From assembly GCA_030826765.1 (NCBI GenBank), contig JAUUDM010000016.1, positions 4,070 to 68,069 on the forward strand: a DNA stretch of 64,000 bases. The letters are read 5' to 3'. Both the position numbers and the translations under genes were made by a program. The notes beneath the pieces are model-generated. The model saw only the letters and a program-made list of their open reading frames with translations. It was not told where the DNA came from and searched no databases. Origin of the DNA: Nautiliales bacterium (GTDB taxonomy: Bacteria; Campylobacterota; Campylobacteria; Campylobacterales; JAADDX01). Positions within the stretch are counted from its first letter, which is position 1, and every line of letters starts with the position of its first letter. Shown piece by piece: positions 9,801 to 53,056 of the stretch.

Positions 9801-10264
9801 ATATGGAAGAGGGATTTTTAGAATTTTTTAAAGATATGGTTATTGTTAATGAGTTAGATTTTAAAAATTTTTCTTTAGAAATTACAGAAAGAGAAAGTAT
9901 TGAAAATACTGAACTTACTAAAAATTTTGTAAAAGAGTTAAAAAAAGTCGGAGTAAAACTTGAAATTGATGACTTTGGTGTTGCTTATTCTAATTTAAAA
10001 CAGACTGTGAGTATTGATTTTGATATTTTAAAAATTGATAAGAGTTTCGTAGATAAAATTTATGAAGAAAAAATTCAAATTGCAATCAAATCCACTATAT
10101 TTTTAGCAAAATCTTTTAATGCAAAAACAATTGCAGAAGGTGTTGAAACAAAAGAACAGTTAGAAATTTTAAAAGAATTAGGAGTTGATTACATTCAAGG
10201 ATACTATTTTGCAAAACCTATGCCGTTTAATAAAGCAGTTGAATATTTAAAATTACATATATAA
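6896..10264 (+). CDS. Membrane-anchored CHASE4-like sensor with PAS domains, a degenerate GGDEF domain and an EAL domain (likely c-di-GMP phosphodiesterase)
   Basis: 1122 aa. N-terminal TM, then DWGEWDDAYNFV (CHASE4-type motif), then a second TM (FFLHFILLIIITYIILFVLGIYFV). PAS-like segments follow. The GGDEF position reads RMYDDRF (degenerate). EAL motifs appear intact: FEALLRL, EITERE, DDFGVAYSNL, KIDKSF, AEGVET, QGYYFAKP. Confidence 0.85.
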   Translation: MNFKKLSLKYFIIFIFVNIFLVTLSGLFLFNHIFKEDTTFYVNEKIKTVDFIIHKEASLLKKLSVDWGEWDDAYNFVNDKNKEFINNNFGGNTTLIDLGIKEIIFLDKNLNLVYGRIVDKNKEKEIKKLPPFDYSKNGFNIYFLNHKLYLVYIHDITNTKKNKKNGKIVVFKYLNKKCFEKNGFQILKITCKHYNTLYKIKENSLIIYYPLDKEITLKIAVDFSKVVHLINEFFLHFILLIIITYIILFVLGIYFVNKITEDIEFIFNILSKGIKDSKALEALKNYKFNISEFELINTLFEKLYEKLYDFEQIYNILDQDAPFGVLIYNKNILYGNKFFLNLFSLNKEELKNLDPLVFFKDKSLKEKIAEINRKILNGEKIIFKYSTEIFYKNKNIYVFMVSFPVIYNNNKAIMTFAIDLTKQMEYQEIINRILNSIPVIVFEHSKNGENNITISENIEKILGFKVNEIDENWWVLHLHPKDKERILNEQDELKIKGKLNHIYRLRKKDGSYIWVNEYVFYKKENKEKIYGLVEDLTEEEIIKKLNASLSEINQFLIKAGNKKSIIDYICKKMIESEVFKFAWIGKVKDNKVIPLKHFGEGKEYLDDLVIEISDGVLSKGPTGEVLYNSNIIGINSNTFTNEKISPWREKQIKSGFFSSIAVRLIDDLTINLYSEFTDFYTQEVLNIISSIRSSFMMACEKNKYIEKLQYLTFYDEITNLGNLNKFKKDFNEYHDKYILCMINIKDFTSINSNFGFEFGNKVLKKVAEELKKHLKKEDEVYRMYDDRFLLFFKTDIWNFDIIHNLTQRISDIFSEEGLLIDNNTIFLEINGSIISSKDIEKEKALEGLIYAYVFVKKVVNKCVIYQPWMYEEVKERIYLKELLFRAIREKLFDVYFQPIVDINSYKVVQFEALLRLKDKNKFVNMEKFINIANELQLVPEITKIVVEKVTKYLKTCKNVVVSVNISKIDMEEGFLEFFKDMVIVNELDFKNFSLEITERESIENTELTKNFVKELKKVGVKLEIDDFGVAYSNLKQTVSIDFDILKIDKSFVDKIYEEKIQIAIKSTIFLAKSFNAKTIAEGVETKEQLEILKELGVDYIQGYYFAKPMPFNKAVEYLKLHI

Positions 10265-12065: not shown

Positions 12066-12458
12066 TTATTGACACTCTTTACAAACTCCGTATAAATATA
12101 CTTCACTTTCATCAATCTCAGAAATTTCACTTAAATTAGGATTACAACTTGTTTTTATTTCAAAGTCATAAATTTTTCCACACTTTTTACAAATAAAATG
12201 TCCATGAGGCTCTTTTTTTATTTCAAAATGTGATTTTGCATCTTGAGGATGAATTTCTAATAAAATTCCTTCATCTTTTAGTGTATGTATATTTTTATAT
12301 ACAGTTGCTAATGAAATTGATGGAAATTTTTCTTTTATGTGTGCATACAAATCATCTATTGAAATATGTCCATTTTTTTGGATTGTTTGTAAAATTTCTA
12401 ATCTTTGTGGAGTTACTTTTAGAGGAGAGTTTTTTAATAGGTTTTGTGAATTTTTCAT
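12066..12458 (-). CDS. Fur-family metalloregulator, PerR-like by context
   Basis: 130 aa. Winged-helix segment KVTPQRLEILQTI...SLATVYKNIHTL, metal-site segment HGHFICKKCGKIYD, and a C-terminal CKEC. Lies directly downstream of a peroxiredoxin gene on the same strand. Confidence 0.8.
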   Translation of the reverse strand: MKNSQNLLKNSPLKVTPQRLEILQTIQKNGHISIDDLYAHIKEKFPSISLATVYKNIHTLKDEGILLEIHPQDAKSHFEIKKEPHGHFICKKCGKIYDFEIKTSCNPNLSEISEIDESEVYLYGVCKECQ

Positions 12459-12473: not shown

Positions 12474-12492
12474 CTAAGAGAAAAACTCTTAG
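12474..12492 (-). terminator. Short hairpin overlapping the peroxiredoxin stop codon (weak terminator or attenuator before the Fur-family gene)
   Basis: Minus strand reads CTAAGAG-TTTTT-CTCTTAG (7-bp stem). There is no strong trailing U-run. Confidence 0.3.
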
Positions 12493-13193
12493 TCAGCCAT
12501 AATTTCTTCGATAGTAATATAATCACCAACTCTACCAGTCATTTGTTCTACGTCAGTATTTACTGGTAATGTTTTTTTACCAGGTCTCCATCCTGCAGGA
12601 CAAACTTCACCAGTTTTATATGCATGTTGATGTGCTTTGATTTGTCTTACGAATTCTTTTACACTTCTTCCAACAGGTGGAGCTTGTACTTCTTGAGCTA
12701 CAATTACACCATCTGGGTTGATTAAGAATCTTCCTCTTAAAGCAATTCCAGCATCTTCGATTAATACACCAAATTTTCTACTTAATTCAGTTGTAGGGTC
12801 AGCTGCAATTGTAAGTTTTAAATCTTTTAATAATGGTTCAGTTTCAGCAAATCTTTTATGGCTGAATTTTGTATCAGTTGATACTGCTAATACTTCACAT
12901 CCAAGTTCACCTTTGATTACATCTAAACTTGCATTCATAGCTGCAATTTCAGTTGGACATACAAATGTGAAATCTGCTGGGTAAAAACAAATAACTGACC
13001 ATTTACCTTTAAAATCTTCACTTGATACTTCTGTATAGTGTCCTGTCTCTGCATTATAAGCTTCTGCTTTGAATTCTGGTATATTTTTAAGTACTAATAC
13101 TCCTGCTTGAGTTGCTTCCATTTTATTCTCCTTAGTTTCTGTTTTATTTTCTACTACTTCTTCAGTAGCTTTTACTTCTCTTTCACAAGCCAT
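12489..13193 (-). CDS. ahpC: Typical 2-Cys peroxiredoxin (AhpC/TSA family); alternative start at 13121
   Basis: Peroxidatic motif FYPADFTFVCPTE and resolving-Cys motif GEVCPAGW. Two in-frame ATGs each have an AAGGAG RBS: 13193 (MACEREVK...) and 13121 (MEATQAGV...). The start in the ORF track (13250) lies inside the promoter -35 box. Confidence 0.9.
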   Translation of the reverse strand: MACEREVKATEEVVENKTETKENKMEATQAGVLVLKNIPEFKAEAYNAETGHYTEVSSEDFKGKWSVICFYPADFTFVCPTEIAAMNASLDVIKGELGCEVLAVSTDTKFSHKRFAETEPLLKDLKLTIAADPTTELSRKFGVLIEDAGIALRGRFLINPDGVIVAQEVQAPPVGRSVKEFVRQIKAHQHAYKTGEVCPAGWRPGKKTLPVNTDVEQMTGRVGDYITIEEIMAD

Positions 13194-13221
13194 TTTAGCT
13201 CCTTTGTGATTTTGTAGTGGA

Positions 13222-13250
13222 ATTATAATTAAAAAATAAAAAAATGTCAA
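13222..13250 (-). promoter_or_regulatory. Sigma70-type promoter, exact TTGACA-N17-TATAAT, for the peroxiredoxin/Fur-family pair
   Basis: On the minus strand, TTGACA is at 13250-13245, followed by a 17-nt spacer and TATAAT at 13227-13222. Confidence 0.6.
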
Positions 13251-13368: not shown

Positions 13369-13734
13369 ATGGCAAAAATTTTAATAGTTGATGATGCAAG
13401 TTTGATCAGAAGTGTGGCGCAAAAAGCTGCTGAAGAAGCAGGACATAGTGTAATTACTGCTACAAATGGTGAAGAAGGATTACAGATAACTCAAGAAAGA
13501 GATGATATAGATTTAATATTTAGTGATGTTAATATGCCAATTATGGGTGGTCTTGATATGGTAGAAAAAATAAAACAGATGGATAAATATAAATTTACTC
13601 CTATTGTTATGCTTACAACAGAATCAAATCCTGATTTAAAAGCAAGAGGAAAAGCTTTAGGTGTAAAAGCTTGGATGTTAAAACCGTTTAACAAAGCAAA
13701 ATTTTTGATGGCTATTCAAAAACTGATAGGTTAA
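13369..13734 (+). CDS. cheY: Chemotaxis response regulator CheY (single REC domain)
   Basis: 121 aa. Motifs ILIVDDAS, FSDVNMPIMGG, MLTTES and KAWMLKPF. First gene of the che operon. Confidence 0.9.
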   Translation: MAKILIVDDASLIRSVAQKAAEEAGHSVITATNGEEGLQITQERDDIDLIFSDVNMPIMGGLDMVEKIKQMDKYKFTPIVMLTTESNPDLKARGKALGVKAWMLKPFNKAKFLMAIQKLIG

Positions 13735-13738
13735 ATAT

Positions 13739-13999
13739 ATGAAAATAGAAACTGAAAAAATAGGTATTTACGAAGTAGAAAATTTAAAAAAAAGTTTATT
13801 ACAAGAACTGGAAAACTCTAATTCAATAAATATTGATTTAGAAAAAGTAAAAAAAATAGAACTTTCAGCTATTCAGTTATTTGTTTCTTTAAAAAAAAGT
13901 TGTGATGAAAAAGGTATTGTATTAACTTTTTCAAAAATAAATGAAGATATTCATAAAAATATTGAAATGAGTGGATGCGATTCTTTTTTGGGGGTATAA
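13739..13999 (+). CDS. Small STAS-domain protein (anti-sigma-antagonist fold), CheS-like by position
   Basis: 86 aa. STAS-like pattern INIDLEKVKKIELSAIQLFVSLKKSCDEKGIVLTFSKINEDIHKNIEMSG. Starts 4 nt after cheY and abuts the cheA start. Confidence 0.55.
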   Translation: MKIETEKIGIYEVENLKKSLLQELENSNSINIDLEKVKKIELSAIQLFVSLKKSCDEKGIVLTFSKINEDIHKNIEMSGCDSFLGV

Positions 14000-16051
14000 A
14001 TGGATGAATTAGATTTATTTCGTGAAGATTCAGAAGAACAACTTCAAGCAATGGAGAATGCTCTTGTTGAAGCTAATGAAAATGGTGTTGATGAAGAGAT
14101 AATAGGATCAATTTTCAGAGCTATGCATACTATTAAAGGAAGTGCCGGTATGTTTGGCTTTGATAATGTAGTTAATTTTACTCACGTTGCAGAAAATCTT
14201 ATGAGTGAAGTAAGAAATGGAAAAGTTGAGTTAGATAGTGAATTAATTGAACTATTTTTTGGGGTTAAAGATCATGTTGAAAAGTTAATTGAATTAGAGA
14301 CGGCTTCTTTACCTTTAGACGGAGAAGTTTTAGAAAAAAATTATGATTTAATAGATAAATTAACTAAAAAACTGCCTGAAAATAATTTATTAAATGAAAT
14401 AGTGTCAATTGAACAAGAAATTAAAGAAAAAAATGATACTAATGAAGACAATACAATGTGGCATTTGTCTATTAGATTACATGAGGATTTTTTCGAATCA
14501 GGCATGGATATTTTATCAATATTCAGTTTTTTAAATAGTATGGGTGAAGTAGTTATAAATATACCAATACTTAATAATATACCGAAATTAGAAGATATTT
14601 CTCCAACAAAAGCTTATATTGGATTTGAAATTGATTTTATGACAGATGTTGATAAAGATATGATAGAAGAAGCTTTTGAATTTATATTAGATGATATTGA
14701 ATTAAAAGTCTTTAGACATAATGATGAAAAAGCTGTAAAAAAATTTTTAGAAAATGTAGAAGAATGTGTATTAAAAGAATTGAATGATAATGGTATTTTT
14801 GAAATTGAAACTTCTGTTGAAAATAAAAAAGAAATTCCAAAAATAGAAGAAAAAAAAATATCAACTCCTTCTAAAAATAAAAAATCAACCAAAAATTTTT
14901 CTTTAAGAGTTGAATCAACAAAAGTTGATCAACTAATGAATCAAATTAGTGAGATGGTGATTGCAAATGCAAAAGTTGCTCAAATGGCTGAATTAAAAGA
15001 GGATAATGAATTAGAAGAAGCTTCAGAAACACTTACTCATTTACTAGAAGAAATTAGAAATTCAGTAATGAGTATAAGAATGGTTCCTGTTGAAGACTCT
15101 TTTATTAAATTTAAAAGAATCGTAACAGATACAGCTAAAAAACTTGGAAAAGATATTGAATTTATAATTACAGGTGGAGATACTGAGCTTGATAAAACCG
15201 TTATAGAAAAAATAAATGATCCACTTGTACATATGCTTAGAAACTCTATTGATCATGGTATTGAGATGCCTCCAGAGAGAATAGCTAAAGGTAAAAATCC
15301 AAAAGGAAGAATTGAATTAAAAACTTATCCTGATGCTGGAACTATTGTTATAGAAATTATAGATGATGGTGCTGGATTGGATTCTGAGAAATTAAAACAA
15401 AAAGCTATTGATAAAGGACTGATTGATAGTAATGCAAATTTAACAGATAAAGAGTGTTTTGAACTTATTTTTCATGCAGGATTTTCTACAGCTAGTCAAG
15501 TCTCTGATATCTCAGGAAGAGGTGTTGGAATGGATGTTGTAAGAAGAAATATAGAAGAGTTAAGAGGAAAAATAGAGATTGACTCCATACTTGGTAAAGG
15601 AACTAAATTCACAATTAGACTTCCGTTAACTTTAGCTATTATAGATGGATTTTTAGTACAAGTTGGAAATAGTAAATTTGTAATTCCTTTAGATATGATT
15701 CAAGAGTGTATAGAACTTACAAAAGATTACAAAGAAAAAATGAAAGGTAATAATTTTGTAAATCTTAGAGGTGAAATATTACCTATATTTGATGTAAGAA
15801 AATATTTTAATGAAGATAAAAGCTATTATGAAAGAGAAAATATAGTGGTTGTTAGATATGCAAACTATTATATTGGTCTTTTAGTAGATGAACTTTTTGG
15901 TGAATATCATACGGTTATTAAACCTTTAGGGGAAGTATTCTCTAATGTTGCTGGAATATCAGGAGGTTCAATACTTGGAAGTGGAGAAGTGGCTCTTATA
16001 TTTGATATACCCGCATTGATTGATTATTATATAAAACAACAAAGGAGTTAA
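14000..16051 (+). CDS. cheA: Chemotaxis histidine kinase CheA
   Basis: Hpt segment FRAMHTIKGSAGMFGF, N box HMLRNSIDHGIE, G1 box DDGAGLD, G2 box GRGVGMDVV, and a C-terminal CheW-like domain. Confidence 0.95.
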   Translation: MDELDLFREDSEEQLQAMENALVEANENGVDEEIIGSIFRAMHTIKGSAGMFGFDNVVNFTHVAENLMSEVRNGKVELDSELIELFFGVKDHVEKLIELETASLPLDGEVLEKNYDLIDKLTKKLPENNLLNEIVSIEQEIKEKNDTNEDNTMWHLSIRLHEDFFESGMDILSIFSFLNSMGEVVINIPILNNIPKLEDISPTKAYIGFEIDFMTDVDKDMIEEAFEFILDDIELKVFRHNDEKAVKKFLENVEECVLKELNDNGIFEIETSVENKKEIPKIEEKKISTPSKNKKSTKNFSLRVESTKVDQLMNQISEMVIANAKVAQMAELKEDNELEEASETLTHLLEEIRNSVMSIRMVPVEDSFIKFKRIVTDTAKKLGKDIEFIITGGDTELDKTVIEKINDPLVHMLRNSIDHGIEMPPERIAKGKNPKGRIELKTYPDAGTIVIEIIDDGAGLDSEKLKQKAIDKGLIDSNANLTDKECFELIFHAGFSTASQVSDISGRGVGMDVVRRNIEELRGKIEIDSILGKGTKFTIRLPLTLAIIDGFLVQVGNSKFVIPLDMIQECIELTKDYKEKMKGNNFVNLRGEILPIFDVRKYFNEDKSYYERENIVVVRYANYYIGLLVDELFGEYHTVIKPLGEVFSNVAGISGGSILGSGEVALIFDIPALIDYYIKQQRS

Positions 16052-16053
16052 TA

Positions 16054-16911
16054 TTGGAAGTAAAAGAAAAAAAATTCAATGATAATGAAATGATAGTATC
16101 TATGACTGATGCGAAAGGAATCATTACTTATGCTAATGATATATTTTGTAAAATGGCAGAATATGATTTAGAAGAGGTAATAGGAAAGCCACATAATATG
16201 TTAAGACATCCTGATATGCCAAAAGTTGTTTTTAAATTAGTATGGAAAAATCTTTTAGCTGGTAGAAATTTTTATGGTTTTGTAAAAAATAAGACAAAAA
16301 ATGGAAATTATTATTGGGTAAAAGCATTTTTTCAACCTATCATAAAAAATGGAAGAGTTGATAAGTTAATATCATATAGACAATCAGTAAACGATTATAC
16401 AAAAGAGATTATTTCACCTGTTTACAAACAACTTTTAGATATAGAATCAAAAGAAGGTATAGTAGGAAGTGAGAAATTTTTAAATGATTTTTTAAATAAA
16501 AGAAATTTAAGTTATATGGAGTTTATAGATAGGTTAAGTGTTGGAAAATCTATAACAAATCCAGCTGTTTTTGATATTAATTATGAAAGTTTTTATAACG
16601 ACCATATAATTTTTAAAGAGCATATAAAGCATCAATGTGAATTAAAAAACTTCGATGTAAAAGTAACTGATAGTTGTTGTTGTAGATTTGGAAAATGGTT
16701 AGATAGTGTAAAAAATGAAGATTATACTAATCATCCAAGTTGGAAAAATATTCATTATGCTCATGATGATTTTCATAATAAATTAAAAGAGTATGTATCA
16801 AGTATGAAAAACTCAAATTCTACTTTATCTAATAAGTTATTAGAAGATATAGAACAAGATACAGAAAAAATTTTTGATAATCTTCAAAAAGTAATTGATG
16901 AGAGCCGTTAA
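16054..16911 (+). CDS. Stand-alone sensor: Aer/CetB-type PAS domain plus a C-terminal CZB (chemoreceptor zinc-binding) domain
   Basis: The PAS domain is very close to the Aer pattern (TDAKGIITYANDIFCKMAEYDLEEVIGKPHNMLRHPDMPKVVF...NGNYYWVKAFFQPI). The CZB motif H-xx-F-x22-C-x-F-G-x-W-x21-H-xxx-H reads DHIIF...CRFGKWL...HDDFH. TTG start with AAAGGAG 6 nt upstream. Confidence 0.75.
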   Translation: MEVKEKKFNDNEMIVSMTDAKGIITYANDIFCKMAEYDLEEVIGKPHNMLRHPDMPKVVFKLVWKNLLAGRNFYGFVKNKTKNGNYYWVKAFFQPIIKNGRVDKLISYRQSVNDYTKEIISPVYKQLLDIESKEGIVGSEKFLNDFLNKRNLSYMEFIDRLSVGKSITNPAVFDINYESFYNDHIIFKEHIKHQCELKNFDVKVTDSCCCRFGKWLDSVKNEDYTNHPSWKNIHYAHDDFHNKLKEYVSSMKNSNSTLSNKLLEDIEQDTEKIFDNLQKVIDESR

Positions 16912-16955: not shown

Positions 16956-18740
16956 ATGAAATCTAAAGAACAATTAGAAGAAATAAAAAAAGTTTTAAAA
17001 GAAATATCAAAAGGAAATTTTGATGTTTTTTTAAGTAGTGAGAATAAATGTTTTGATGAATTTAAAGATTTAAAAGAAAATTTATCAAATTTAGAAAGTG
17101 ATATTAAAGATGTAAATGAGGCTGCATTAAAAGGTGAAATTGATGTAAGAATTGATGCTAGGAAATATGAAAATGGATTTAGAAAAATAGCTGAAGCTTT
17201 AAATTATACTATAGATTCAAATACTGGCGCTGTTAGAGAAATGGGGCAAGTAATTAGAAAATTGGCAAGTGGTGATTTATCTGCAAAAGTTACAAATAAT
17301 TATTCAGCAGATTTAAATGAAGTAAAAGAAGCTATTAATTATTTAGCAGATACTTTAAATAATCTAAGAAAAGATGCTGTACTTATTAGTGACGCAGTAT
17401 CAAAAGGTGAACTTAGTGTTAGAATAGATACATCTAAATATAAAGGAGATTTCACTTTAATACATAAAACTACTAATTTTACAATAGAAAGTGTTAATAA
17501 ATCATTTAAAGAAATTGCAGATGCATTAGTTAAGTTTGGAGAGGGGCAGTTTAAATATAGAATTACAAATGATTATAATGGAGATTTTAATACAATAAAA
17601 GAGTCTTTTAATCAAGCTTTTATTATTACGAATACTATTTTTGAAGAAGTTATTATGATGAAAGAAGCTGTTGAAAATGGAAATTTAGATGTTAGAGCTG
17701 ATATAAGTAAATATAAAGGCGATTTTATAGAATTAGTAGGTACTCTGAACTTAATGGTAAATATTACAAAAGATGCTTTAAATGATATTAATGAGAATTT
17801 AGAAAAACTAAAAATGGGAGATTTAACTACACAAATTACAAAAGATTATAAAGGAGCATTTGGTATTACAAAAGATGCTTTTAATAATTTTGTAGAAAAT
17901 TTAACTTCTATTACTACACAAATTAAAACAGGTGCTAATGAAATTACAACAGCAGCAAATACAGTAAGTAGTGCTTCTCAATCACTTTCAACAGGAGCAA
18001 CTGAGCAAGCAAGTAGTTTAGAAGAAACGAGTGCAGCTATTGAAGAAATGAGTGGCTCTATCAATGAAACAGCCAAAAATGCTATTAAAACAAATGAACT
18101 TGCAGAAGAGAGTGCAAAAATGTCTCTTGAAGGTGGAGAAGCTGTTGATAAAACAGTTGATGCTATGAAAACTATTAGTGAAAGAATTAAAATAATTGAA
18201 GATATTGTATATCAAACAAATTTACTTGCACTTAATGCAGCAATTGAAGCAGCTAGAGCAGGAGAGCATGGAAAAGGATTTGCAGTTGTGGCAGCTGAGG
18301 TTAGAAAATTAGCAAAAAGAAGTCAAATTGCAGCAGGTGAGATTAGTGAAATAACAAGAGATAGTCTAGATATTTCTCAAAAAGCTGGAACTTTAATCTC
18401 TACAGTAGTTCCAAAAATTCAAGAAACAGCAAATTTAATTAAAGATATTGCAAATGCAGCAAAAGAACAAGATATTGCAATTTCTCAAATCACATCAGCT
18501 ATGAGTCAGTTAGACCAAGTAACACAAGCAAATGCTTCATCTTCTCAAGCTTTAGCTGCGTCAGCTAAACAATTAAATGGACAAGCAAACTCTTTAACAG
18601 AAATGATTTCATTCTTTAAATTAGCAGATAGTCATGTAGGTGGTGGTTTTAATGCAGGTAAAGTTTCTCCACAAACAGTATCAAAACCAGCTAAAAACCT
18701 AAATAGTGAATTTGATTTAAGAGATTTTGATAGATATTAA
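16956..18740 (+). CDS. Soluble methyl-accepting chemotaxis protein with an N-terminal tandem HAMP-like array (no TM segment)
   Basis: 594 aa with no hydrophobic stretch. Three tandem ~88-aa repeat pairs are followed by the MCP signalling domain ([22 protein letters not shown]...[34 protein letters not shown]). Confidence 0.9.
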
Positions 18741-18741
18741 T

Positions 18742-19251
18742 ATGAAAAATAGAGATTACGAAGATGATTTAGACCTTAGTCTAAATCAAGATGGAGAACA
18801 ATATCTATTTTTCTCTTGTAACAATGATTTTTATGCAATTGATGCTTTAAGAGTGGTGGAGATTATAGAGTATCAACTGTATACTAAAGTTCCTATGATG
18901 AAAAGATTTGTCAAAGGAATTACAAATGTAAGAGGTGATTTGATAGCTGTAGTTGATTTAAAAGATTTTTTTGGATTTGGTGAAACTATCAAAGATAAAA
19001 AAACATCTATGATTATACTAAATGTAAAAAATAGTGATAATGAACTTAAAATTGCTATTATTATCGATGAGGTGTTTGAAGCTAAATATTTAGGCGAAGA
19101 AGATATAAAAAGTGCACCAGAATTTGGTGTTAAAATAGATTCAAAGTTTATAAAAAATATGTGTCAATATAATGGAAATTATATACCTATTTTAGATATT
19201 GATAAATTATTAAATGTAAAACAATTATCTAAAATTGAATTACATCAATAA
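18742..19251 (+). CDS. cheW: Chemotaxis coupling protein CheW
   Basis: CheW-like domain (YLFFSCNNDFYAIDALRVVEI...ITNVRGDLIAVVDLKDFFG). The ATG lies 1 nt after the MCP stop. The TTG start in the ORF track (18727) would overlap the MCP. Confidence 0.9.
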   Translation: MKNRDYEDDLDLSLNQDGEQYLFFSCNNDFYAIDALRVVEIIEYQLYTKVPMMKRFVKGITNVRGDLIAVVDLKDFFGFGETIKDKKTSMIILNVKNSDNELKIAIIIDEVFEAKYLGEEDIKSAPEFGVKIDSKFIKNMCQYNGNYIPILDIDKLLNVKQLSKIELHQ

Positions 19252-19260
19252 AGGTTTTGT

Positions 19261-20202
19261 ATGATAGAAGATATTAAAACAAATGATGATTTTAATGAAG
19301 AAGATGATGAATTAGATATTATAAAGTTAGTTTCTACTAATGCAAATAATTCTAATCAATATCTGATTTTTAATGGTTCAAATGGTGAACTTTATGCCAA
19401 AAATGTTTCTAAAATCGAGGAGTTAATTGTATATAAAGATTTAGAAATTGCTCATAACTCAACGGGTTCGCTTATTATAGGAACAGCTGATGTAAGAGGT
19501 CAGATGACACCTATTGTGAATTTCGATGAGTGGTTTGGAAATAAAGTTTTAGATGATAGTGAATATGAACTTGTAGTATTAGCTAGTTATGGTGGATATA
19601 GATTTGGGATTGTTGTAAAAAGTGTTGAGTATATTGTGGCTATTGAGCCAGAAGATATGGTTGATAATTCTATATCAAATCCAAAAACTACATTTATAAC
19701 AAAAGTAAAAGTTGGAAGTGAAAATAGACTTTGTACTATTTTTGATAGTGATAAAATGCTTTTAGATATTTTTGAAAATAGTGAAAAAAGTAATTTAGAA
19801 AAAATTTCAAATGTTACATCTAAGAGAGTTAGTGAAAAATTAGTTCTATTTGCTGATGATTCTAAATTTATTAGAGAAATGGTGAGAAAATTTTTTGTAG
19901 CTATGGATCTTAATTATAAAATTTTTGAAGATGGAAAATATTTGATTGAAGAACTTAAAAAATTAAATCCTAATGATATAGGACTTATTATTACTGATTT
20001 AGAGATGCCAAATCTTGGAGGTAAGGAAGTAATTAAATTTATTAGAGAAAATTTAAAATTTAATGATATAAATATAATAGTTCATACAAATATGTCAAAT
20101 AATATTATGGAAGAAGATTTATTAAAAGCAGGTGCAAATCAAATTATAAACAAAATTGATATGAAAGAATTATCGCAGAGTATTAAAAAGAATATAAGAT
20201 AA
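19261..20202 (+). CDS. cheV: CheV (CheW-like domain fused to a C-terminal REC domain)
   Basis: CheW-like N-terminal half (YLIFNGSNGELYAKNVSKIEE...). REC half with LFADDS, ITDLEMPNLGG and VHTNMS. Confidence 0.9.
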   Translation: MIEDIKTNDDFNEEDDELDIIKLVSTNANNSNQYLIFNGSNGELYAKNVSKIEELIVYKDLEIAHNSTGSLIIGTADVRGQMTPIVNFDEWFGNKVLDDSEYELVVLASYGGYRFGIVVKSVEYIVAIEPEDMVDNSISNPKTTFITKVKVGSENRLCTIFDSDKMLLDIFENSEKSNLEKISNVTSKRVSEKLVLFADDSKFIREMVRKFFVAMDLNYKIFEDGKYLIEELKKLNPNDIGLIITDLEMPNLGGKEVIKFIRENLKFNDINIIVHTNMSNNIMEEDLLKAGANQIINKIDMKELSQSIKKNIR

Positions 20203-21008
20203 TGAACAATTTAATCTTAAATGATAAAGAATTCAAAGTTTTTCAAAAAATTATTTTTGATGAGACTGGAATTAGTTTGAGTGATTCTAAAAAGATGTTA
20301 GTTCAAAGCAGATTATTAAAAAGAATTGCTTTTTATAAGATGAATAGTTTTTTAGATTATTTGAGATATATTCAAATAAATAAAAAAGAAAAAATAGAAA
20401 TGATAAATCAAATAACTACTAATGAAACTTATTTTTTTAGAGAAATGAAACATTTTGAATTTATTGAAAAGTTAGCTAAAAATATGGATATTAAAAGTAG
20501 GTTAAGAATATGGAGTGCAGCGTCTTCGGTAGGTGCTGAAGCTTATAGCCTTGCTATGGTAGTTGATGAATATTTAAGAAAAGATCAATGGGAAATAGTT
20601 GGTACAGATATAAATACAGAAGTTATTAAAAAAGCTAGAATTGGTCTTTATCCTGAAAGTTGGGTGAAAAAAATACCATTAAAATATAGACAAAAATATT
20701 GTTTAAAAGGAAAAGGGAATTATGAAGGACAATTTCTAGTAGATAGAAAACTAATCACTAATATAAAATTTGAAAAAGGTAATTTATTGGTAAAACAAGA
20801 AGGAATAGGAAAGTTTGATGTTGTTTTTTTAAGAAATGTTTTGATATACTTCAATGATGAAATAAAAAAACGCGTTATTCATAATGTGATTTCAAATTTA
20901 AAAATCGGTGGTTATTTTATTATTAGTTTGACAGAGAATTTAAAAAACTTAGATATAAAAGAGTTAGTTCAATTAGATACTTCTATATATCAAAAGGTAA
21001 GTAAATGA
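20202..21008 (+). CDS. cheR: Chemotaxis protein methyltransferase CheR
   Basis: ETYFFRE motif, SAM-binding segment RIWSAASSVGAEAYSLAM, and VFLRNVLIYF. Confidence 0.9.
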   Translation: MNNLILNDKEFKVFQKIIFDETGISLSDSKKMLVQSRLLKRIAFYKMNSFLDYLRYIQINKKEKIEMINQITTNETYFFREMKHFEFIEKLAKNMDIKSRLRIWSAASSVGAEAYSLAMVVDEYLRKDQWEIVGTDINTEVIKKARIGLYPESWVKKIPLKYRQKYCLKGKGNYEGQFLVDRKLITNIKFEKGNLLVKQEGIGKFDVVFLRNVLIYFNDEIKKRVIHNVISNLKIGGYFIISLTENLKNLDIKELVQLDTSIYQKVSK

Positions 21009-21817
21009 AAATAATGGTTGTTTCGAGCAAAGGTGGAGTTGGTAAAAGTACAATCTCTATGCAATTAATTGCTCCTTATCTTTATATACGTAATGATAAA
21101 AAACCTATTAAATTTTATGAATGTGATGATGAAAATAGTGATAGTTTGAGTTTTGGTGCATCTAATTTAATAGATAGAAAGTTAATAAAAGTGGATGTTC
21201 CTATCTTAAGAGAAGAACTTCTTGAAATTTTTTCTAAACCTGAGTTTACTTGTATGGATATTGGGGGAAATAAATCTACTACTATGGTTTTAGATGCCTT
21301 AGATTTAAGTGGGGCTATTCATTTTGTAGATTTAGCAGTTATTCCTATTTTAGATGGGGAACAAGATGCTATTAATGCAAGTGTTGTTTATACTCAAATA
21401 AAAAGTATGAATCCTAATATTAAATTTTTGTTTGTTTTAAATAGATGTAAAAATGAGAGATTTTTAGAGTATCAGTTTGAAAATTATTTTGGAGATGTGA
21501 GAGGAATTTTCAGTGAAAAATATGCTGTAAAAAACTATCTTTTTGATAATGATAAAGATAATTATATAGCTTTATTAGATGATGATGTTATAAAATATAG
21601 TAGAAAGTTTGGTCTTACTATTTATGAAATTGCAAAACAACAAAGAGATTTTATTCCTGAACTTAAAGTAAAAGTAGAAAAAATGACAAATGAACAAGAA
21701 GCAAAACTATTAAGTTTTAAGAATTATGTAAATAAAAGTGCAATAAAATATTATGAAAATGTCTTAATAAAAGGATTTAAAAAAATTGATAAAATATCAC
21801 AAAAGGGTAAATTATGA
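21005..21817 (+). CDS. ParA/MinD-family P-loop ATPase embedded in the che operon
   Basis: Deviant Walker A in MKIMVVSSKGGVGKSTIS, with candidate A'/B motifs ECDDEN and FTCMDIGG. Overlaps cheR and the next ORF by 4 nt on each side. Confidence 0.75.
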   Translation: MKIMVVSSKGGVGKSTISMQLIAPYLYIRNDKKPIKFYECDDENSDSLSFGASNLIDRKLIKVDVPILREELLEIFSKPEFTCMDIGGNKSTTMVLDALDLSGAIHFVDLAVIPILDGEQDAINASVVYTQIKSMNPNIKFLFVLNRCKNERFLEYQFENYFGDVRGIFSEKYAVKNYLFDNDKDNYIALLDDDVIKYSRKFGLTIYEIAKQQRDFIPELKVKVEKMTNEQEAKLLSFKNYVNKSAIKYYENVLIKGFKKIDKISQKGKL

Positions 21818-22731
21818 TAACAAGTAAGATTCAAGAATTTGTAGCATTTCTAGCTTCATCTAAAAGAGTGTTAATATTAAGTAATAGAGATATGTCACAA
21901 TTTATGGATATATTTGATAATTTTGAAATGGCTATTTTTGAAGGTATTAATGAAAATAGTATAAAAAATTTAAGTTTTAATTTTACAAAAAATCATATAG
22001 ATATTGTAATTTTTGCACCAGATGAAGATTTTGAAGATATTCTTTCTATGTATGGAAAAATTAAAGGAATATCTAATGAGACAGAAATACTTTTAATATT
22101 ACCTGAATATTGTAAAACAGATGAAATAGTTGAGATAGTTGATACTTATGATGTTGTAATGGGAGGAAATTTTTCAAGAGAAGTTTTATTAAATAGATTA
22201 TTTAGAGTCCTTAGTGCTCAATATGCAGTGAATAATGTTAATTTTGTATCAGAAGCTCTTTTTAAAGATGTTGAAAATAATAATAAAAAAGAACTTGAAG
22301 AGTTCTTGGATGTTTATGAAGGTGCTGTAATATTTTTGATAGATAATTTAGCTGAATTAATTGATCAATTAAAAAATGGAAATTTATCACAAGAATTACT
22401 TCAAAGGATTGGTGAAGAACTTATGGAAGTTCATGAAATATTTTCTATTCATAACTATACAAGAAAAGTAGCTCCAATATTTCAAAAATTTTCAGAATAT
22501 TTAAAAAATTTAAAATTAGAGGATATAGATGTTGAAAATTTAGAAGCTTTTAATTATTTAACAGATATTTTAGAAGATATAAATATTTATTTAAAAGATT
22601 ATTTTATTGATAGAATTTTTCAGGATGTTTATATGTTTCAGCATTCTCTTGAAAGTAATATAGAGTTTTTAGAAGCTAAATTAGCCGGAAAAGAAGATAG
22701 TGATGATGAAGATAGTTTAGAGTTTTTTTAA
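21814..22731 (+). CDS. Unknown che-operon protein X1: degenerate receiver-like N-domain, helical (Hpt-like?) C-domain and an acidic tail ending LEFF
   Basis: 305 aa. Shares 4-nt and 1-nt overlaps with the parA-like gene and cheB. C-terminus reads ...GKEDSDDEDSLEFF. Paralogous to the ORF at 23772-24902 over the C-terminal ~130 aa. Confidence 0.65.
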   Translation: MITSKIQEFVAFLASSKRVLILSNRDMSQFMDIFDNFEMAIFEGINENSIKNLSFNFTKNHIDIVIFAPDEDFEDILSMYGKIKGISNETEILLILPEYCKTDEIVEIVDTYDVVMGGNFSREVLLNRLFRVLSAQYAVNNVNFVSEALFKDVENNNKKELEEFLDVYEGAVIFLIDNLAELIDQLKNGNLSQELLQRIGEELMEVHEIFSIHNYTRKVAPIFQKFSEYLKNLKLEDIDVENLEAFNYLTDILEDINIYLKDYFIDRIFQDVYMFQHSLESNIEFLEAKLAGKEDSDDEDSLEFF

Positions 22732-23702
22732 TGATTAAAGTATTTATTATTGATGATTCTATATTAGTCAGAACAAAAATTATTAATATTTTACAAGATA
22801 AAGAAATTAATGTAATTGGAGATGCAGGAAATCCTATTGATGCTTTAAATATTTTTAAAAAAGTTGGCCTTCCTGATTTATTTATATTAGATATAGAAAT
22901 GCCAAAAATGAATGGTGTAGAATTTTTAGAAAAAATAAACACTCAAAGACCAACACCAGTGGTTATTATTTCTTCTTTTGTAGATGAAATTGTAAAAAAT
23001 AAATTATGTAATATAAATTCTACAATAGAAATGTTGCCTAAAACAAAAATGCAAAATATGAATAATTTTTCTAAAGATTTAATTAATAAAATTCATTTTC
23101 TAACAAATTCTAATATAAAAAAGCCTTCAAATTTACCATCATCAAAAATTATTTCTATTGGTTCTTCCACAGGAGGTGTTCAGATATTAGAAGAGATTGT
23201 TAGTAAAATAAATTATGGGCATAAAGGTATAGTGATTGTTCAGCATATGCCCGAAAGTTTTACTGCTTCTTTTGCTTCAAGACTTAATTCTCTGACAAGG
23301 AGTGAAGTAGTAGAAGCAAGAGAGGGAGATATTATTAAAGATTCTAAAATCATAATAGCAAAAGGCGGTATCCATTTAGAAGTGTATCATGCAAAAGATG
23401 GTTTTAGAGTTAGATTTAAAGATTATAAAAAAGTAAATTTTCATAAGCCAAGCGTAAATGTTTTATTTAAGAGTGTTGCAGAAAATGTTGGCAAAAGAGC
23501 TATGGGAATAGTTTTGACAGGTATGGGAGATGATGGAGCGATTGGTTTAAAAATGATGAGAGAAGCTGGAGCTCTTACTTATGCACAAGATGAAAAGTCA
23601 TCAATTGTTTATGGAATGCCAAAGGTAGCTTTAGAGATCGGTGGGGCTATGGAATCTTTGAATATTAATCAAATTGTAGAAAAAATAAATAATTTTAAAT
23701 AA
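22731..23702 (+). CDS. cheB: Chemotaxis methylesterase/deamidase CheB (REC + esterase domains)
   Basis: REC domain with VFIIDDS and ILDIEMPKMNG. Esterase domain with IGSSTGG, VQHMP and TGMGDDG. Confidence 0.9.
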   Translation: MIKVFIIDDSILVRTKIINILQDKEINVIGDAGNPIDALNIFKKVGLPDLFILDIEMPKMNGVEFLEKINTQRPTPVVIISSFVDEIVKNKLCNINSTIEMLPKTKMQNMNNFSKDLINKIHFLTNSNIKKPSNLPSSKIISIGSSTGGVQILEEIVSKINYGHKGIVIVQHMPESFTASFASRLNSLTRSEVVEAREGDIIKDSKIIIAKGGIHLEVYHAKDGFRVRFKDYKKVNFHKPSVNVLFKSVAENVGKRAMGIVLTGMGDDGAIGLKMMREAGALTYAQDEKSSIVYGMPKVALEIGGAMESLNINQIVEKINNFK

Positions 23703-23742: not shown

Positions 23743-23771
23743 TTATAGTAATAAAATAATTGGAGGATACT

Positions 23772-24902
23772 ATGTTTATAGATGTAAAAGAGATAAAACC
23801 TTTAGTATTAGAAAATATTCAAAATCAAGGTGTGGTTCTTTTATCAAATAAAAAAAAATTTATTAAAGAATTTAAAAAAAATTTTTCTAAATTATCACAT
23901 AAAATAAAAATTTTGGATGATGAAACAAAAGGTTTACATGAGATATTAAAAAATGAAGATTTATATGATATTATAATTACAAATTTTAAAAATGGCTATA
24001 AAATAAAACGAATTATGCCCCATAAAAAGGTTTTAGTTGTTGATTATAAAGAAAATTTTGATTTTAAATATATAATTGTTGATGAATTTGTATCTAAACC
24101 AGTTGATAAAGTTATTTTTTATAATGCTATGTATTCTTTAACAAAAGTTATTGCAGATGAAAAAGAATTAAAATATTATCTAAACTCTTTAGAAACTGAA
24201 ATATCAGAATTGAATTGTAATATGTGTAGAACTTTAAATAAAAATATTGATGATATAAATTTATTAAGAAAAGAACTCTTTTCCCTTATGCATCATAATT
24301 GTGAATTTCAGTATAACTCTTCTCTATGTGGAATTGAGGAAAAAATTAAAGAAAAAGAAAAAATAGAAAATGATAAATATGAAAATCATAATATGAGATT
24401 TACCCTTGATGAAGATAAAAAAATAGATGCCCAAACTTTTGTATCAGAATTAAATGATATTGATTTTGAAAGAGTTGATATATTAAAAGAACATTTTGGA
24501 GAATTTACAATATTTCTAAATAATGCCTATACTATGGATTATTTAGAATTTTATGAAAATAAAGATTATATAGTATCTATGCTTAATGAATTATATCAAT
24601 CTATAAATAGATTTTATAGATTTGAGATTTTGGCTATTACATTTAAAGATTTTGCTGATTTTATAAATAATTTAACATTAGAAGATTTACAAAAAAGTGA
24701 TAATAAGGAAATGTTTCTAGATTCTTTAATTGCTATTATTGATGATGTAATTGATTGGATTGATATAATTTTCTTTTTGAAAACTACAGATAATATAAAT
24801 TATCTTGATGCTTCTTTTTCTAGTAATTGTGAACAAATTAAAGAAATATTTAAAAATGAAGAAGTATTAGAAGATGATATGGATGATTTAGAGTTTTTTT
24901 AA
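23772..24902 (+). CDS. Unknown che-operon protein X2: receiver-like N-domain, long linker, helical C-domain and an acidic tail ending LEFF (paralogue of X1)
   Basis: GGAGG lies 6 nt before the ATG at 23772 (the TTG start at 23760 in the ORF track is rejected). C-terminus reads ...EVLEDDMDDLEFF. The final 15 nt (tttagagtttttttaa) are identical to the X1 3' end. Confidence 0.65.
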   Translation: MFIDVKEIKPLVLENIQNQGVVLLSNKKKFIKEFKKNFSKLSHKIKILDDETKGLHEILKNEDLYDIIITNFKNGYKIKRIMPHKKVLVVDYKENFDFKYIIVDEFVSKPVDKVIFYNAMYSLTKVIADEKELKYYLNSLETEISELNCNMCRTLNKNIDDINLLRKELFSLMHHNCEFQYNSSLCGIEEKIKEKEKIENDKYENHNMRFTLDEDKKIDAQTFVSELNDIDFERVDILKEHFGEFTIFLNNAYTMDYLEFYENKDYIVSMLNELYQSINRFYRFEILAITFKDFADFINNLTLEDLQKSDNKEMFLDSLIAIIDDVIDWIDIIFFLKTTDNINYLDASFSSNCEQIKEIFKNEEVLEDDMDDLEFF

Positions 24903-52940: not shown

Positions 52941-53056
52941 TTAAATACCTTTTATTTTTTTGTAATTATACCAACTATTTAGTCGAAATGTGAATTTTTT
53001 AAGATTGATTATTTATATTTGGTATAATTAAGTAAAAACTTTGATTGGAGTCGATA

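Follow-up and report, generated by a model that had tools for sequence, protein, structure and literature searches.

A PAS-CZB protein as the probable, separately encoded input subunit of a cytoplasmic chemoreceptor in Campylobacterota

The window considered here, a stretch of 64,000 nucleotides from a Nautiliales bacterium (GCA_030826765.1, contig JAUUDM010000016.1), carries a 12-gene chemosensory operon in which the gene of a PAS-CZB protein lies between cheA and the gene of a soluble 34H receptor. The source is a member of the Campylobacterota with a GC content of about 26%. The genes of the operon are as follows.

13369..13734, + strand: CheY-type response regulator that opens the operon (Pfam Response_reg, 83 bits)
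13739..13999, + strand: small STAS-domain protein (Pfam STAS and STAS_2)
14000..16051, + strand: CheA histidine kinase with Hpt, dimerisation, ATPase and CheW-like domains (Pfam)
16054..16911, + strand: PAS-CZB protein, soluble, 285 aa, start codon TTG
16956..18740, + strand: soluble poly-HAMP MCP, 594 aa (Pfam HAMP_2 four times, HAMP once, MCPsignal)
18727..19251, + strand: CheW (Pfam CheW, 98.9 bits)
19261..20202, + strand: CheV, a CheW domain with a receiver domain (Pfam)
20202..21008, + strand: CheR methyltransferase (Pfam CheR and CheR_N)
21005..21817, + strand: ParA/MinD-like P-loop ATPase (weak Pfam ParA and CbiA matches)
21814..22731, + strand: conserved protein of ~300 aa whose acidic tail ends in LEFF (no Pfam match)
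22731..23702, + strand: CheB methylesterase (Pfam CheB_methylest, 189 bits, and Response_reg)
23760..24902, + strand: 380-aa protein whose tail is acidic and likewise ends in LEFF (no Pfam match)

A sequence scan found no terminator within the intergenic gaps of the operon, promoter-like sites occurred at chance frequency in the AT-rich DNA of the window, and an Rfam scan of the window returned no match. The CheY-type gene is kept at the head of the operon in all related loci, the STAS gene is kept between cheY and cheA in related loci, and the ~300-aa protein is conserved, together with its LEFF tail, in all of the operons. The ParA/MinD-like gene is found in loci L081, L003, L085, L089 and L090 and is missing from L082, L084, L001, L004, L005 and L091, while the 380-aa protein takes the slot of receiver-domain proteins, its counterparts in L082 and L084 carrying Response_reg.

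The cluster encodes its own cognate 34H receptor, and the link between 34H receptors and the F8 class of chemosensory systems is stated in the literature (PMC9321776, PMC11253619, PMC7184735). The genes of the orthologous operon of Sulfurimonas autotrophica (WP_013326778 to WP_013326787, our locus L091) are likewise listed as F8 in table S3 of Mo et al. 2022, and a gene-by-gene comparison between this operon and that of the window gives identities of 41-72%, except for the STAS protein (36%) and the ~300-aa protein (33%). A cytoplasmic system of the F9/DosM type was also considered, prompted by the STAS and ParA-like genes, and was rejected on the grounds of the 34H receptor, its one signalling domain and the single-domain CheW.

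The PAS-CZB gene starts 2 nt past the stop codon of cheA and has an AAGGAG Shine-Dalgarno sequence 6 nt 5' of its start codon. Its product comprises two domains, an N-terminal Aer-type PAS and a C-terminal CZB four-helix bundle, without an output domain, and the AlphaFold2 model of the whole protein is of high confidence (pLDDT 95.4, pTM 0.84).

16090..16386, + strand: Aer-type, FAD-type PAS core, residues 13-111
16393..16575, + strand: helical linker, residues 114-174, a long helix (114-149) followed by short helices in the AlphaFold2 model
16582..16902, + strand: CZB four-helix bundle, residues 177-283
16603-16605, 16681-16683, 16762-16764 and 16774-16776, + strand: predicted zinc ligands H184, C210, H237 and H241, respectively

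The sequence-only reading had described a split sensor in which PAS and CZB are joined without an output domain and encoded apart from the receptor, and had proposed an HMM scan for PAS_3 and CZB (PF13682) as a check. Both domains are indeed matched above their Pfam cut-offs, PAS_3 over residues 25-108 with 55.5 bits (cut-off 25.6) and CZB over residues 184-247 with 31.9 bits against 29.4, a narrow margin of 2.5 bits.

The PAS domain of E. coli Aer (8dik), to which the N-terminal domain is 40-43% identical, is the best solved-structure match by sequence (phmmer, E = 2.3e-30), and also the best fold match of the AlphaFold2 model (Foldseek; TM 0.93, rmsd 1.2 A). Eight residues, R51, H47, W64, N79, Y87, W88, N28 and F31, are invariant in all 73 of the family members compared, and correspond in that order to R57, H53, W70, N85, Y93, W94, N34 and F37 of Aer. 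H52 (Aer H58) is kept in 72 of the 73, R109 (Aer R115) and S16 (Aer S22) in at least 90% of the 73 homologues, and D54 (Aer D60) is less conserved, at 54 of 73. The residues named for the flavin pocket and redox switch of Aer, R115, S22, H53, F37 and N85 (PMC13232288), thus have their counterparts here in R109, S16, H47, F31 and N79. Aer W79 is not kept across the family, in which F, I, V or L takes its place. The FAD-type Aer PAS pattern recognised in the initial reading stands, with ITYAN, PHNMLRHPDMP and VKN..KNG..YWV all found, although its wording slipped in three places: 'GY' is EY, 'F..W' is F...W, and 'G..W.G' is GRNFYG, with the F of this last motif standing where Aer has W79. The Aer PAS in isolation loses FAD when stabilising contacts are lacking (PMC13232288), and FAD binding by the PAS-CZB protein may therefore depend on its partner.

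The linker that follows is common to CetB-like, PAS-only relatives, with which the alignment reaches as far as residues ~158-170. For the C-terminal half, a sequence profile run against PDB sequences found neither DgcZ nor any other CZB domain, and fold comparison was therefore needed. Because a fold search with the whole protein was flooded by PAS and LOV matches, and was set aside as a test of CZB identity, residues 112-285 were modelled separately (pLDDT 95.3). The top PDB fold match of this model was the CZB domain of DgcZ (3t9o_B; TM 0.73, rmsd 2.3 A, 111 columns, probability 1.0), albeit with a Foldseek E-value of only 0.03. The CZB profile is matched in 64 of the 73 family members, with a best E-value of 5e-11. 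The complete CZB signature that had been read from the sequence is likewise present (H184-IIF, C210-RFGKW, H237-DDF-H241), and the four candidate ligands H184, C210, H237 and H241 are conserved in 69, 62, 70 and 71 of the 73 family members. C210 is replaced in 11 of the 73 (~15%) and H184 lost in four, and about 60% of the family has a run of three cysteines, CCC, at the single-cysteine position of a canonical CZB domain.

The gene immediately downstream encodes, as had been supposed, a soluble poly-HAMP MCP with HAMP and MCPsignal matches and no hydrophobic or transmembrane segment, the maximum Kyte-Doolittle mean over 19 residues being 1.06.

16956-17915, + strand: HAMP array of ~7 units, residues 1-320, with a G-x-[LF] motif every ~45 residues
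17916-18629, + strand: 34H signalling domain with methylation-site EQ/EE pairs, residues 321-558
18711-18737, + strand: terminal motif FDLRDFDRY, after a variable tail, conserved in 12 orthologues

The receptor is assigned to the 34H class because, in comparison with the 36H receptor Tsr, both of its arms are missing 7 residues at symmetric places. Among its Pfam matches, which are to HAMP and MCPsignal only, there is no sensor domain of its own; its best NCBIfam match is Vibrio Aer2, and its relatives in Methylomonas, Thauera and Rhodocyclaceae bear 4HB, TarH or NIT sensors. A Rosetta-stone test found a fused CZB (PF13682) in none of the 120 closest receptor homologues, one of which has an in-line PAS_4 that is unrelated to the Aer-type PAS. 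The number of HAMP units varies from ~6 to ~10 per orthologue, and the array is poorly conserved (identity of 0.19-0.65 per 15-residue block), with no obvious docking site.

Clustered at 90% identity, the PAS-CZB proteins form a family of more than 120 clusters with a uniform length of ~285 aa, and every named source belongs to the Campylobacterota, S. autotrophica DSM 16294 included. A scan of GTDB genomes with a degenerate PAS pattern recovered at least five full-length members among the matches listed. A full-length profile search of representatives returned mostly multi-PAS proteins among its best 150 matches, with full-length matches from ~8 clusters at 50% identity; among those best 150, no full-length PAS-CZB match lay inside a longer protein. 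In each of the 14 independent loci compared, the window and 13 others including S. autotrophica DSM 16294, cheA is followed by the PAS-CZB gene and this by the MCP gene, at 32-70% identity between the PAS-CZB proteins; the three genes overlap or are separated by gaps of 0-44 nt, with no terminator between them. In S. autotrophica the PAS-CZB gene is situated between cheA (WP_013326785) and cheW (WP_013326782) of the F8 operon. The co-conservation of the gene pair, which had been put forward as a further check, is thus borne out down to 32% identity.

Two natural variants of this arrangement are informative. In Sulfurimonas sp. AH-709-D16 the same operon slot is filled by a 167-aa, CetB-like protein that consists of PAS plus linker and has no CZB domain. 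Locus L092 has no gene in this slot, and its receptor, an orthologue recognisable by its LDLRDFDRY end, carries an in-line PAS after its first HAMP unit. The genes of PAS-only relatives, 43-51% identical over residues 1 to ~165, also lie directly 5' of an MCP gene in many members of the Campylobacterota, the Actinomycetota and the alphaproteobacteria. The precedent of CetA/CetB invoked in the sequence-only reading is therefore strengthened by the PAS-only protein that a sister lineage has in the same slot.

Covariation provides a weak and non-discriminating, if suggestive, indication that the sensor evolves with the HAMP array. When the background of CheY, CheA and CheR was removed from a mirror-tree analysis of 12 related taxa, the residual distances of the PAS domain, the linker and the CZB domain correlated best with those of the HAMP array of the receptor (r = 0.44-0.61, as opposed to -0.20 to 0.22 for CheW). 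In the same 12 taxa, however, the unrelated ~300-aa protein shows just as strong a correlation with the HAMP array (r = 0.61), and the signal may therefore reflect shared fast evolution.

The PAS-CZB protein is most likely a plug-in input module of the adjoining sensor-less receptor, and we consider it probable that the two proteins together make up a cytoplasmic chemoreceptor whose input subunit, PAS-CZB, has a gene of its own. In this model the partner would be the soluble 34H receptor encoded by the next gene, with its ~7 HAMP units, methylatable signalling hairpin and C-terminal tether motif. The sensor, with its cofactor bound, would dock non-covalently on the HAMP array and bias the packing of the HAMP units and the methylation helices, much as the Aer PAS does laterally in cis and CetB in trans. 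The biased receptor would in turn control its cognate CheA within a probable F8 system that includes CheY, STAS, CheW, CheV, CheR and CheB. The CZB bundle would most likely hold one Zn2+ on H184, C210, H237 and H241 and respond to oxidants or to zinc availability, and, added to a CetB-like core rather than part of it, the bundle would serve as a second, accessory input or as a scaffold for dimerisation. The best reading of the locus is accordingly a CetA/CetB-like bipartite energy-taxis receptor placed in an F8-class cytoplasmic system, with CZB as a second, accessory redox or zinc input.

The closest known parallels are CetA/CetB of Campylobacter jejuni and CetA2/CetB2 of Magnetospirillum gryphiswaldense, FAD binding and interaction having been shown in the latter (PMC2628428, PMC12442639). 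These systems share with the window a small, output-less protein with an Aer-type PAS that is co-transcribed with an adjoining sensor-less HAMP-MCP. However, CetA is membrane-anchored, with a single HAMP, and belongs to an F3 system, whereas the receptor of the window is soluble, has ~7 HAMP units, is of the 34H class and is encoded within a probable F8 operon with its own CheA; moreover, the sensor gene comes first in the window and the sensor has an additional CZB bundle of 110 residues. In E. coli Aer, a PAS domain, a membrane anchor, a single HAMP and a 36H domain are all found on one polypeptide, and the receptor is unmethylated. Here, by contrast, the PAS is on a separate soluble protein, and the receptor has methylation-site motifs and a dedicated CheR and CheB. 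Aer2 of Pseudomonas aeruginosa and Vibrio cholerae, from F7 systems, resembles the window receptor in being soluble with several HAMP_2-type HAMP units, yet it is a 36H/F7 receptor with an in-line haem PAS between its HAMP units, while the receptor of the window is 34H and probably F8, has no PAS of its own and is accompanied by a separate flavin-type PAS. It is the variant receptor of L092 that has the Aer2-like layout of HAMP, PAS and poly-HAMP.

A different docking geometry is suggested by analogy with TlpD of Helicobacter pylori, in whose crystal structure the N-terminal PAS and C-terminal CZB domains are neighbours at the distal end of the receptor (preprint 10.64898/2026.01.16.699579), and where CZB domains may straddle a coiled coil. 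TlpD, McpA of Salmonella enterica and DgcZ of E. coli have the 3His/1Cys four-helix bundle in common with the window protein, but in all three the CZB domain is covalently joined to the output, whereas in the window it lies on a separate polypeptide rather than C-terminal to an MCP signalling domain, and is fused only to a flavin-type PAS. The list of CZB contexts in the sequence-only reading, which named TlpD and DgcZ, was incomplete. The PAS of the cytoplasmic TlpD lacks a ligand pocket and shows no sequence relationship to the PAS considered here, although it adjoins CZB distally in a geometry that the PAS-CZB protein would recreate in trans. Along these lines it is conceivable, if rather doubtful, that the protein acts as a detachable 'head' that reproduces the PAS-plus-CZB distal end of TlpD, with a pair of CZB domains clamping the coiled coil or HAMP rod and a zinc-thiolate gating the flavin signal. 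The CCC run specific to this family might then sharpen the zinc-thiolate state that gates the flavin signal to the kinase, and the cytoplasmic array could compute the coincidence of FAD redox state and of oxidant or zinc availability sensed by CZB. If this is true, the protein would provide the first demonstrated case of a CZB domain acting in trans, and PAS-only proteins, PAS-CZB proteins and in-line PAS domains would be natural, exchangeable sensor cartridges for one receptor scaffold.

The variability of the C-terminal half raises the opposite possibility, that PAS is the sole sensor and the CZB-like bundle a dimerisation or scaffold module in which any metal is structural and carries no signal. 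Identity within the CZB half is 25-64% (alignment A3) as opposed to 32-70% for the whole protein, with the flavin residues of the PAS invariant, and the loss of the cysteine ligand in 11 of 73 members and of H184 in four points the same way. With the cysteine replaced in these members and one lineage having no CZB domain at all but a PAS-plus-linker protein in the same slot, zinc sensing may be dispensable; the dimer interface of DgcZ, furthermore, is formed by its CZB domains (quoted in preprint 10.64898/2026.01.16.699579). Nevertheless, the full 3His/1Cys set is kept in ~85% of members at 32-70% identity, which exceeds what a scaffold would need, and the site is regulatory in every characterised CZB protein (TlpD, DgcZ and McpA; PMC8262984, preprints). 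We therefore regard a purely structural CZB as unlikely.

The choice of partner deserves similar scrutiny. The PAS-CZB gene is no less tightly adjoined by cheA than by the gene of the receptor, starting 2 nt past the end of cheA or overlapping it in all loci, so that by gene order alone CheA could be the direct partner; the contact of the sensor with the receptor is, after all, one that we infer. The protein might then act on CheA, or on the STAS protein, CheV or the LEFF-tailed proteins, to give redox control of the kinase that is independent of the receptor. This is improbable in view of the L092 variant, in which the PAS that compensates for the missing gene sits in the receptor and not in CheA. 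Signalling by Aer-type PAS domains, moreover, is known to be directed at HAMP and methylation helices (PMC13232288), and that by CetB at CetA (PMC2628428), and a receptor deprived of PAS-CZB would have no input whatever. It is less probable still that the protein is a free-standing factor in redox or zinc homeostasis, such as a zinc buffer or a regulator of c-di-GMP enzymes, since despite the receiver-GGDEF protein that ends some related operons, the GGDEF-EAL-CZB gene just 5' of the operon in one relative and the 'CZB-only' proteins with no assigned role that make up 27% of CZB sequences (PMC8262984), PAS-CZB was found nowhere outside the chemosensory operon slot in the 14 independent loci, the C-terminal profile retrieved no architecture other than PAS-CZB, and the GGDEF neighbours are not conserved, being missing from the window, L081, L082 and L091.

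A separate PAS-CZB module beside a sensor-less receptor was not found described in the literature that could be searched, and its gene is the only one of the operon that is missing from a published survey of chemosensory systems in the Campylobacterota. In the part of the supplementary CZB data set of Perkins 2021 that was available to us, there were no entries from Sulfurimonas or Arcobacter.

CZB domains rank among the commonest cytoplasmic sensor modules, and how they communicate with receptors is only now being worked out. To our knowledge, the CZB domains studied so far, those of TlpD, McpA and DgcZ, all have a covalent link to their output. In our model, a CZB domain fused to the best-understood of redox PAS domains must act on its receptor non-covalently. 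The PAS-CZB family would thereby supply the F8 input in Sulfurimonas and its relatives. The system also comes with natural controls built in, namely the PAS-only orthologue in the same slot, the members that have no cysteine ligand and the receptor with an in-line PAS. As the proteins are small and soluble, in vitro reconstitution should be feasible, and S. autotrophica DSM 16294, the genome of which is complete, is available as a host in culture. The bacteria that carry the family are sulfur-oxidising relatives of Campylobacter and inhabit oxic-sulfidic interfaces, a setting in which their lifestyle centres on redox taxis.

The open reading frame at 16054-16911 (+) has a TTG start and encodes 285 residues, with a ribosome-binding site (AAGGAG) 6 nt upstream of the start and only 2 nt separating it from the cheA stop codon. 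As the sequence-only reading had claimed, the product combines a PAS and a CZB domain, both exceeding their curated Pfam thresholds, and neither a hydrophobic segment nor an output domain was found in it.

Domain matches in the PAS-CZB protein
Residues 25-108: PAS_3, Pfam 55.5 bits against a curated threshold of 25.6
Residues 184-247: CZB (PF13682), Pfam 31.9 bits against a curated threshold of 29.4

NCBIfam additionally aligns residues 205-277 locally with its DgcZ equivalog (E = 2.2e-5). Every motif quoted in the earlier reading is present, with three transcription slips in its PAS pattern: the protein has EY for GY, F at the position of Aer W79, and F...W rather than F..W.

Among solved structures, the PAS half best matches 8dik, the PAS domain of E. 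coli Aer (E = 2.3e-30); full-length Aer ranks second, ahead of MmoS and NifL, which are FAD-binding PAS proteins. With 73 homologues as input, AlphaFold2 gives a model (pLDDT 95.4, pTM 0.84) that superposes on 8dik with a TM of 0.93 and an rmsd of 1.2 A. Subtracting 6 from the Aer numbering (given in brackets), all 73 homologues keep R51 (R57), W64 (W70), N79 (N85), Y87 (Y93), W88 (W94), N28 (N34), H47 (H53) and F31 (F37), while H52 (H58) is kept in 72 and R109 (R115) and S16 (S22) in at least 90% each. In a cryo-EM preprint, the flavin redox switch of Aer is formed by R115, S22, H53, F37 and N85 (PMC13232288). Given the match to the Aer PAS domain, the shared fold of the model and the retention of the flavin residues, we strongly infer that the PAS half binds FAD.

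Modelled separately, residues 112-285 (pLDDT 95.3) find as their top PDB fold match the regulatory CZB domain of DgcZ, 3t9o (TM 0.73, rmsd 2.3 A, probability 1.0). The predicted zinc ligands are well kept among the 73 homologues (H184 in 69, C210 in 62, H237 in 70 and H241 in 71), 64 of which match the CZB profile, with a best E of 5e-11. The ligand cysteine closes a run of three, C208-C209-C210 (16675-16683), that roughly 60% of family members share (47, 44 and 62 of 73, position by position) and that, to our knowledge, is absent from the canonical CZB motif C-x-[LF]-G-x-W; it could alter the redox reactivity or metal preference of the domain. In the AlphaFold2 model the PAS and CZB domains are joined by a long helix (114-149) and short helices, a linker region also common to PAS-only relatives.

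The gene stands fourth in a compact operon of 12, with gaps of at most 57 nt, several overlaps and no terminator-like site found in the intergenic gaps.

Genes of the operon, in order
1, CheY; 2, STAS protein; 3, CheA
4, 16054-16911 (+): PAS-CZB protein
5, 16956-18740 (+): MCP
6, CheW; 7, CheV; 8, CheR
9, 21005-21817: ParA/MinD-like ATPase, in about half of related operons and missing from the others
10, 21814-22731: protein of about 300 aa (305 aa here), no Pfam family
11, CheB
12, 23760-24902: receiver-like protein of 340-380 aa (380 aa here), no Pfam family

Co-conservation of the sensor gene with the MCP gene, a check proposed in the sequence-only reading, holds at 13 of 13 independent loci besides the window, spanning 32-70% identity (L081, L082/83, L084, L085/86, L087, L089, L090, L091, which is S. 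autotrophica DSM 16294, CP002205, and the GTDB loci L001-L005); in each, the PAS-CZB gene is flanked by cheA and by the gene for the poly-HAMP MCP, all in the same operon. Word-indexed searches gave about 127 family clusters at 90% identity, 278-301 aa long save for a few shorter ones that look truncated. All of them comprise PAS plus CZB, or plus a CZB too diverged for Pfam. Their annotations read only "PAS domain S-box protein" or "hypothetical"; where a source is named, it is Sulfurimonas, Arcobacter/Arcobacteraceae, Campylobacterales or, once, a MAG labelled Helicobacter; and a profile search with the CZB half retrieved no architecture other than PAS-CZB.

The putative partner receptor is, as previously described, a soluble poly-HAMP MCP; we found no sensor domain in it. 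Its HAMP array spans residues 1-320 and comprises about seven units, in which a G-x-[LF] motif recurs roughly every 45 residues and Pfam matches HAMP_2 four times and HAMP once; among orthologues the array is weakly conserved and varies in unit number. By sequence the receptor is assigned to the 34H class, since each arm of its signalling hairpin lacks 7 residues, at symmetric positions, when compared with Tsr, a 36H receptor; the EQ/EE methylation-site pairs are kept. Its C-terminus, FDLRDFDRY (18711-18737, residues 586-594), lies beyond a variable linker of about 30 residues that is probably disordered, and 12 of 12 orthologues keep the motif DLRxFxR[YFM]. This motif is likely to be a variant of the C-terminal CheR/CheB tether; the 34H receptor in the F8 system of P. 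syringae reportedly has one. The cognate receptors of F8 systems are of the 34H type (PMC9321776, PMC11253619, PMC7184735), and Mo et al. 2022 assign the orthologous S. autotrophica operon genes to F8, without the PAS-CZB gene among the F8 components they list.

Natural variants of the sensor slot are informative. In Sulfurimonas sp. AH-709-D16 (L006) the slot holds a 167-aa PAS-only protein, 51% identical to window residues 4-167, that stops exactly where CZB would start, with the MCP start codon 20 nt beyond its gene; this form comprises four clusters (P0072-P0075). A CetB-like PAS protein is therefore the system's core, and CZB was either added to that core or lost in the L006 lineage. In the operon of locus L092 there is no separate sensor gene, and the MCP gene directly follows cheA. 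The orthologous receptor encoded there (P0343, L092 5001-7712) keeps the conserved C-terminal motif, here LDLRDFDRY, and carries, after its first HAMP, an in-line PAS_4 (residues 81-190) with a dense cysteine cluster, CYNQFRAQDCKTANCACDNAMRSETMCDSEC, which suggests a metal or iron-sulfur cofactor. This mutual exclusivity, a single case, is what an input role of the PAS-CZB protein at this receptor would predict. Poly-HAMP receptors that are more distantly related (Methylomonas, Thauera, Rhodocyclaceae) bear their own 4HB, TarH or NIT sensors, and none of the 120 top-matching receptor relatives carries CZB. Many Flavobacterium/Tenacibaculum genomes also encode close PAS-only relatives, with 42-46% identity across residues 4-165, and no MCP gene lies near them (L016, L019-L021, L025, L032-L033 and many other Flavobacterium loci). 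These organisms are non-flagellated, and the CetB-like module must there have a different partner.

The Aer PAS domain signals laterally to the HAMP and methylation-helix cap (PMC13232288), and CetB signals to CetA in trans, CetB2 binding both FAD and CetA2 (PMC2628428, PMC12442639). CZB domains hold Zn on three His and one Cys, and what they sense is HOCl or how much zinc is available (PMC8262984; preprint 10.64898/2026.07.03.735341); the crystal structure of TlpD shows two of them straddling the receptor coiled coil, with the N-terminal PAS adjoining (preprint 10.64898/2026.01.16.699579). On these precedents, we propose that a PAS-CZB dimer docks on the distal receptor, either along the HAMP rod or where that rod meets the methylation helices; FAD redox state would be the primary signal and the CZB zinc site a second input or gate. 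Mirror-tree analysis lends weak support to the pairing, the sensor following the HAMP array (partial r = 0.44-0.61) more than CheW (-0.20 to 0.22), although the array likewise tracks an unrelated fast-evolving protein.

The pair would work like CetA/CetB, although the receptor departs from CetA architecture in being soluble, with about seven HAMPs and a 34H/F8 assignment. As in TlpD a true CZB domain is present, but here the MCP does not carry it; the HAMP rod is shared with Aer2, whose in-line haem PAS is missing. PAS-CZB is not one of the seven groups in a published census of CZB architectures (soluble MCP, membrane MCP, DGC, DGC-EAL, EAL-CZB, CheW-CZB and CZB-only; PMC8262984); a full-text literature search for "PAS-CZB" returned no match, and neither CZB nor zinc comes up in a 2026 review of aerotaxis. 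The parts are familiar; what appears new is the PAS-CZB combination, CZB putatively acting in trans, and so tidy a set of natural variants.

Other features of the neighbourhood deserve mention. The two operon proteins lacking a Pfam family both have an acidic C-terminal stretch that runs into a final LEFF (NLEFF, SLEFF, DLEFF), a tail present in nearly all loci examined (window, L081, L082, L084, L085, L089, L090). They look paralogous in sequence because they share a motif just upstream of it (F.DVY.FE.S..NI.F / NI.Y.DASF). The tail resembles the NWETF pentapeptide, which tethers CheR and CheB to receptors, and the C-terminal CheY-binding peptide of CheZ, yet is borne by non-receptor proteins. 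The ParA/MinD-like ATPase recalls PpfA, which positions cytoplasmic chemoreceptor clusters in Rhodobacter. Immediately upstream of the operon, and divergent, are genes for a Fur-family (PerR-like) regulator (12066-12458, -) and an AhpC-type peroxiredoxin (12489-13250, -), a neighbourhood not conserved at other related loci. The last operon product of some relatives is a receiver-GGDEF protein, and one relative has a GGDEF-EAL-CZB protein and a hemerythrin just upstream (L089 16771-17784; L090 16519-17805; L087 1187-3845), which hints at a link between the chemosensory system and c-di-GMP. Elsewhere the window encodes three more proteins of c-di-GMP signalling, CHASE4-PAS-GGDEF-EAL (6896-10264), dCache-GGDEF-EAL (44323-46386) and protoglobin-GGDEF (61914-63185), the last likely an oxygen-sensing cyclase, as well as two bacterial WD40 beta-propeller proteins at 1991-4117 and 53045-54511, the second with a PKD domain.
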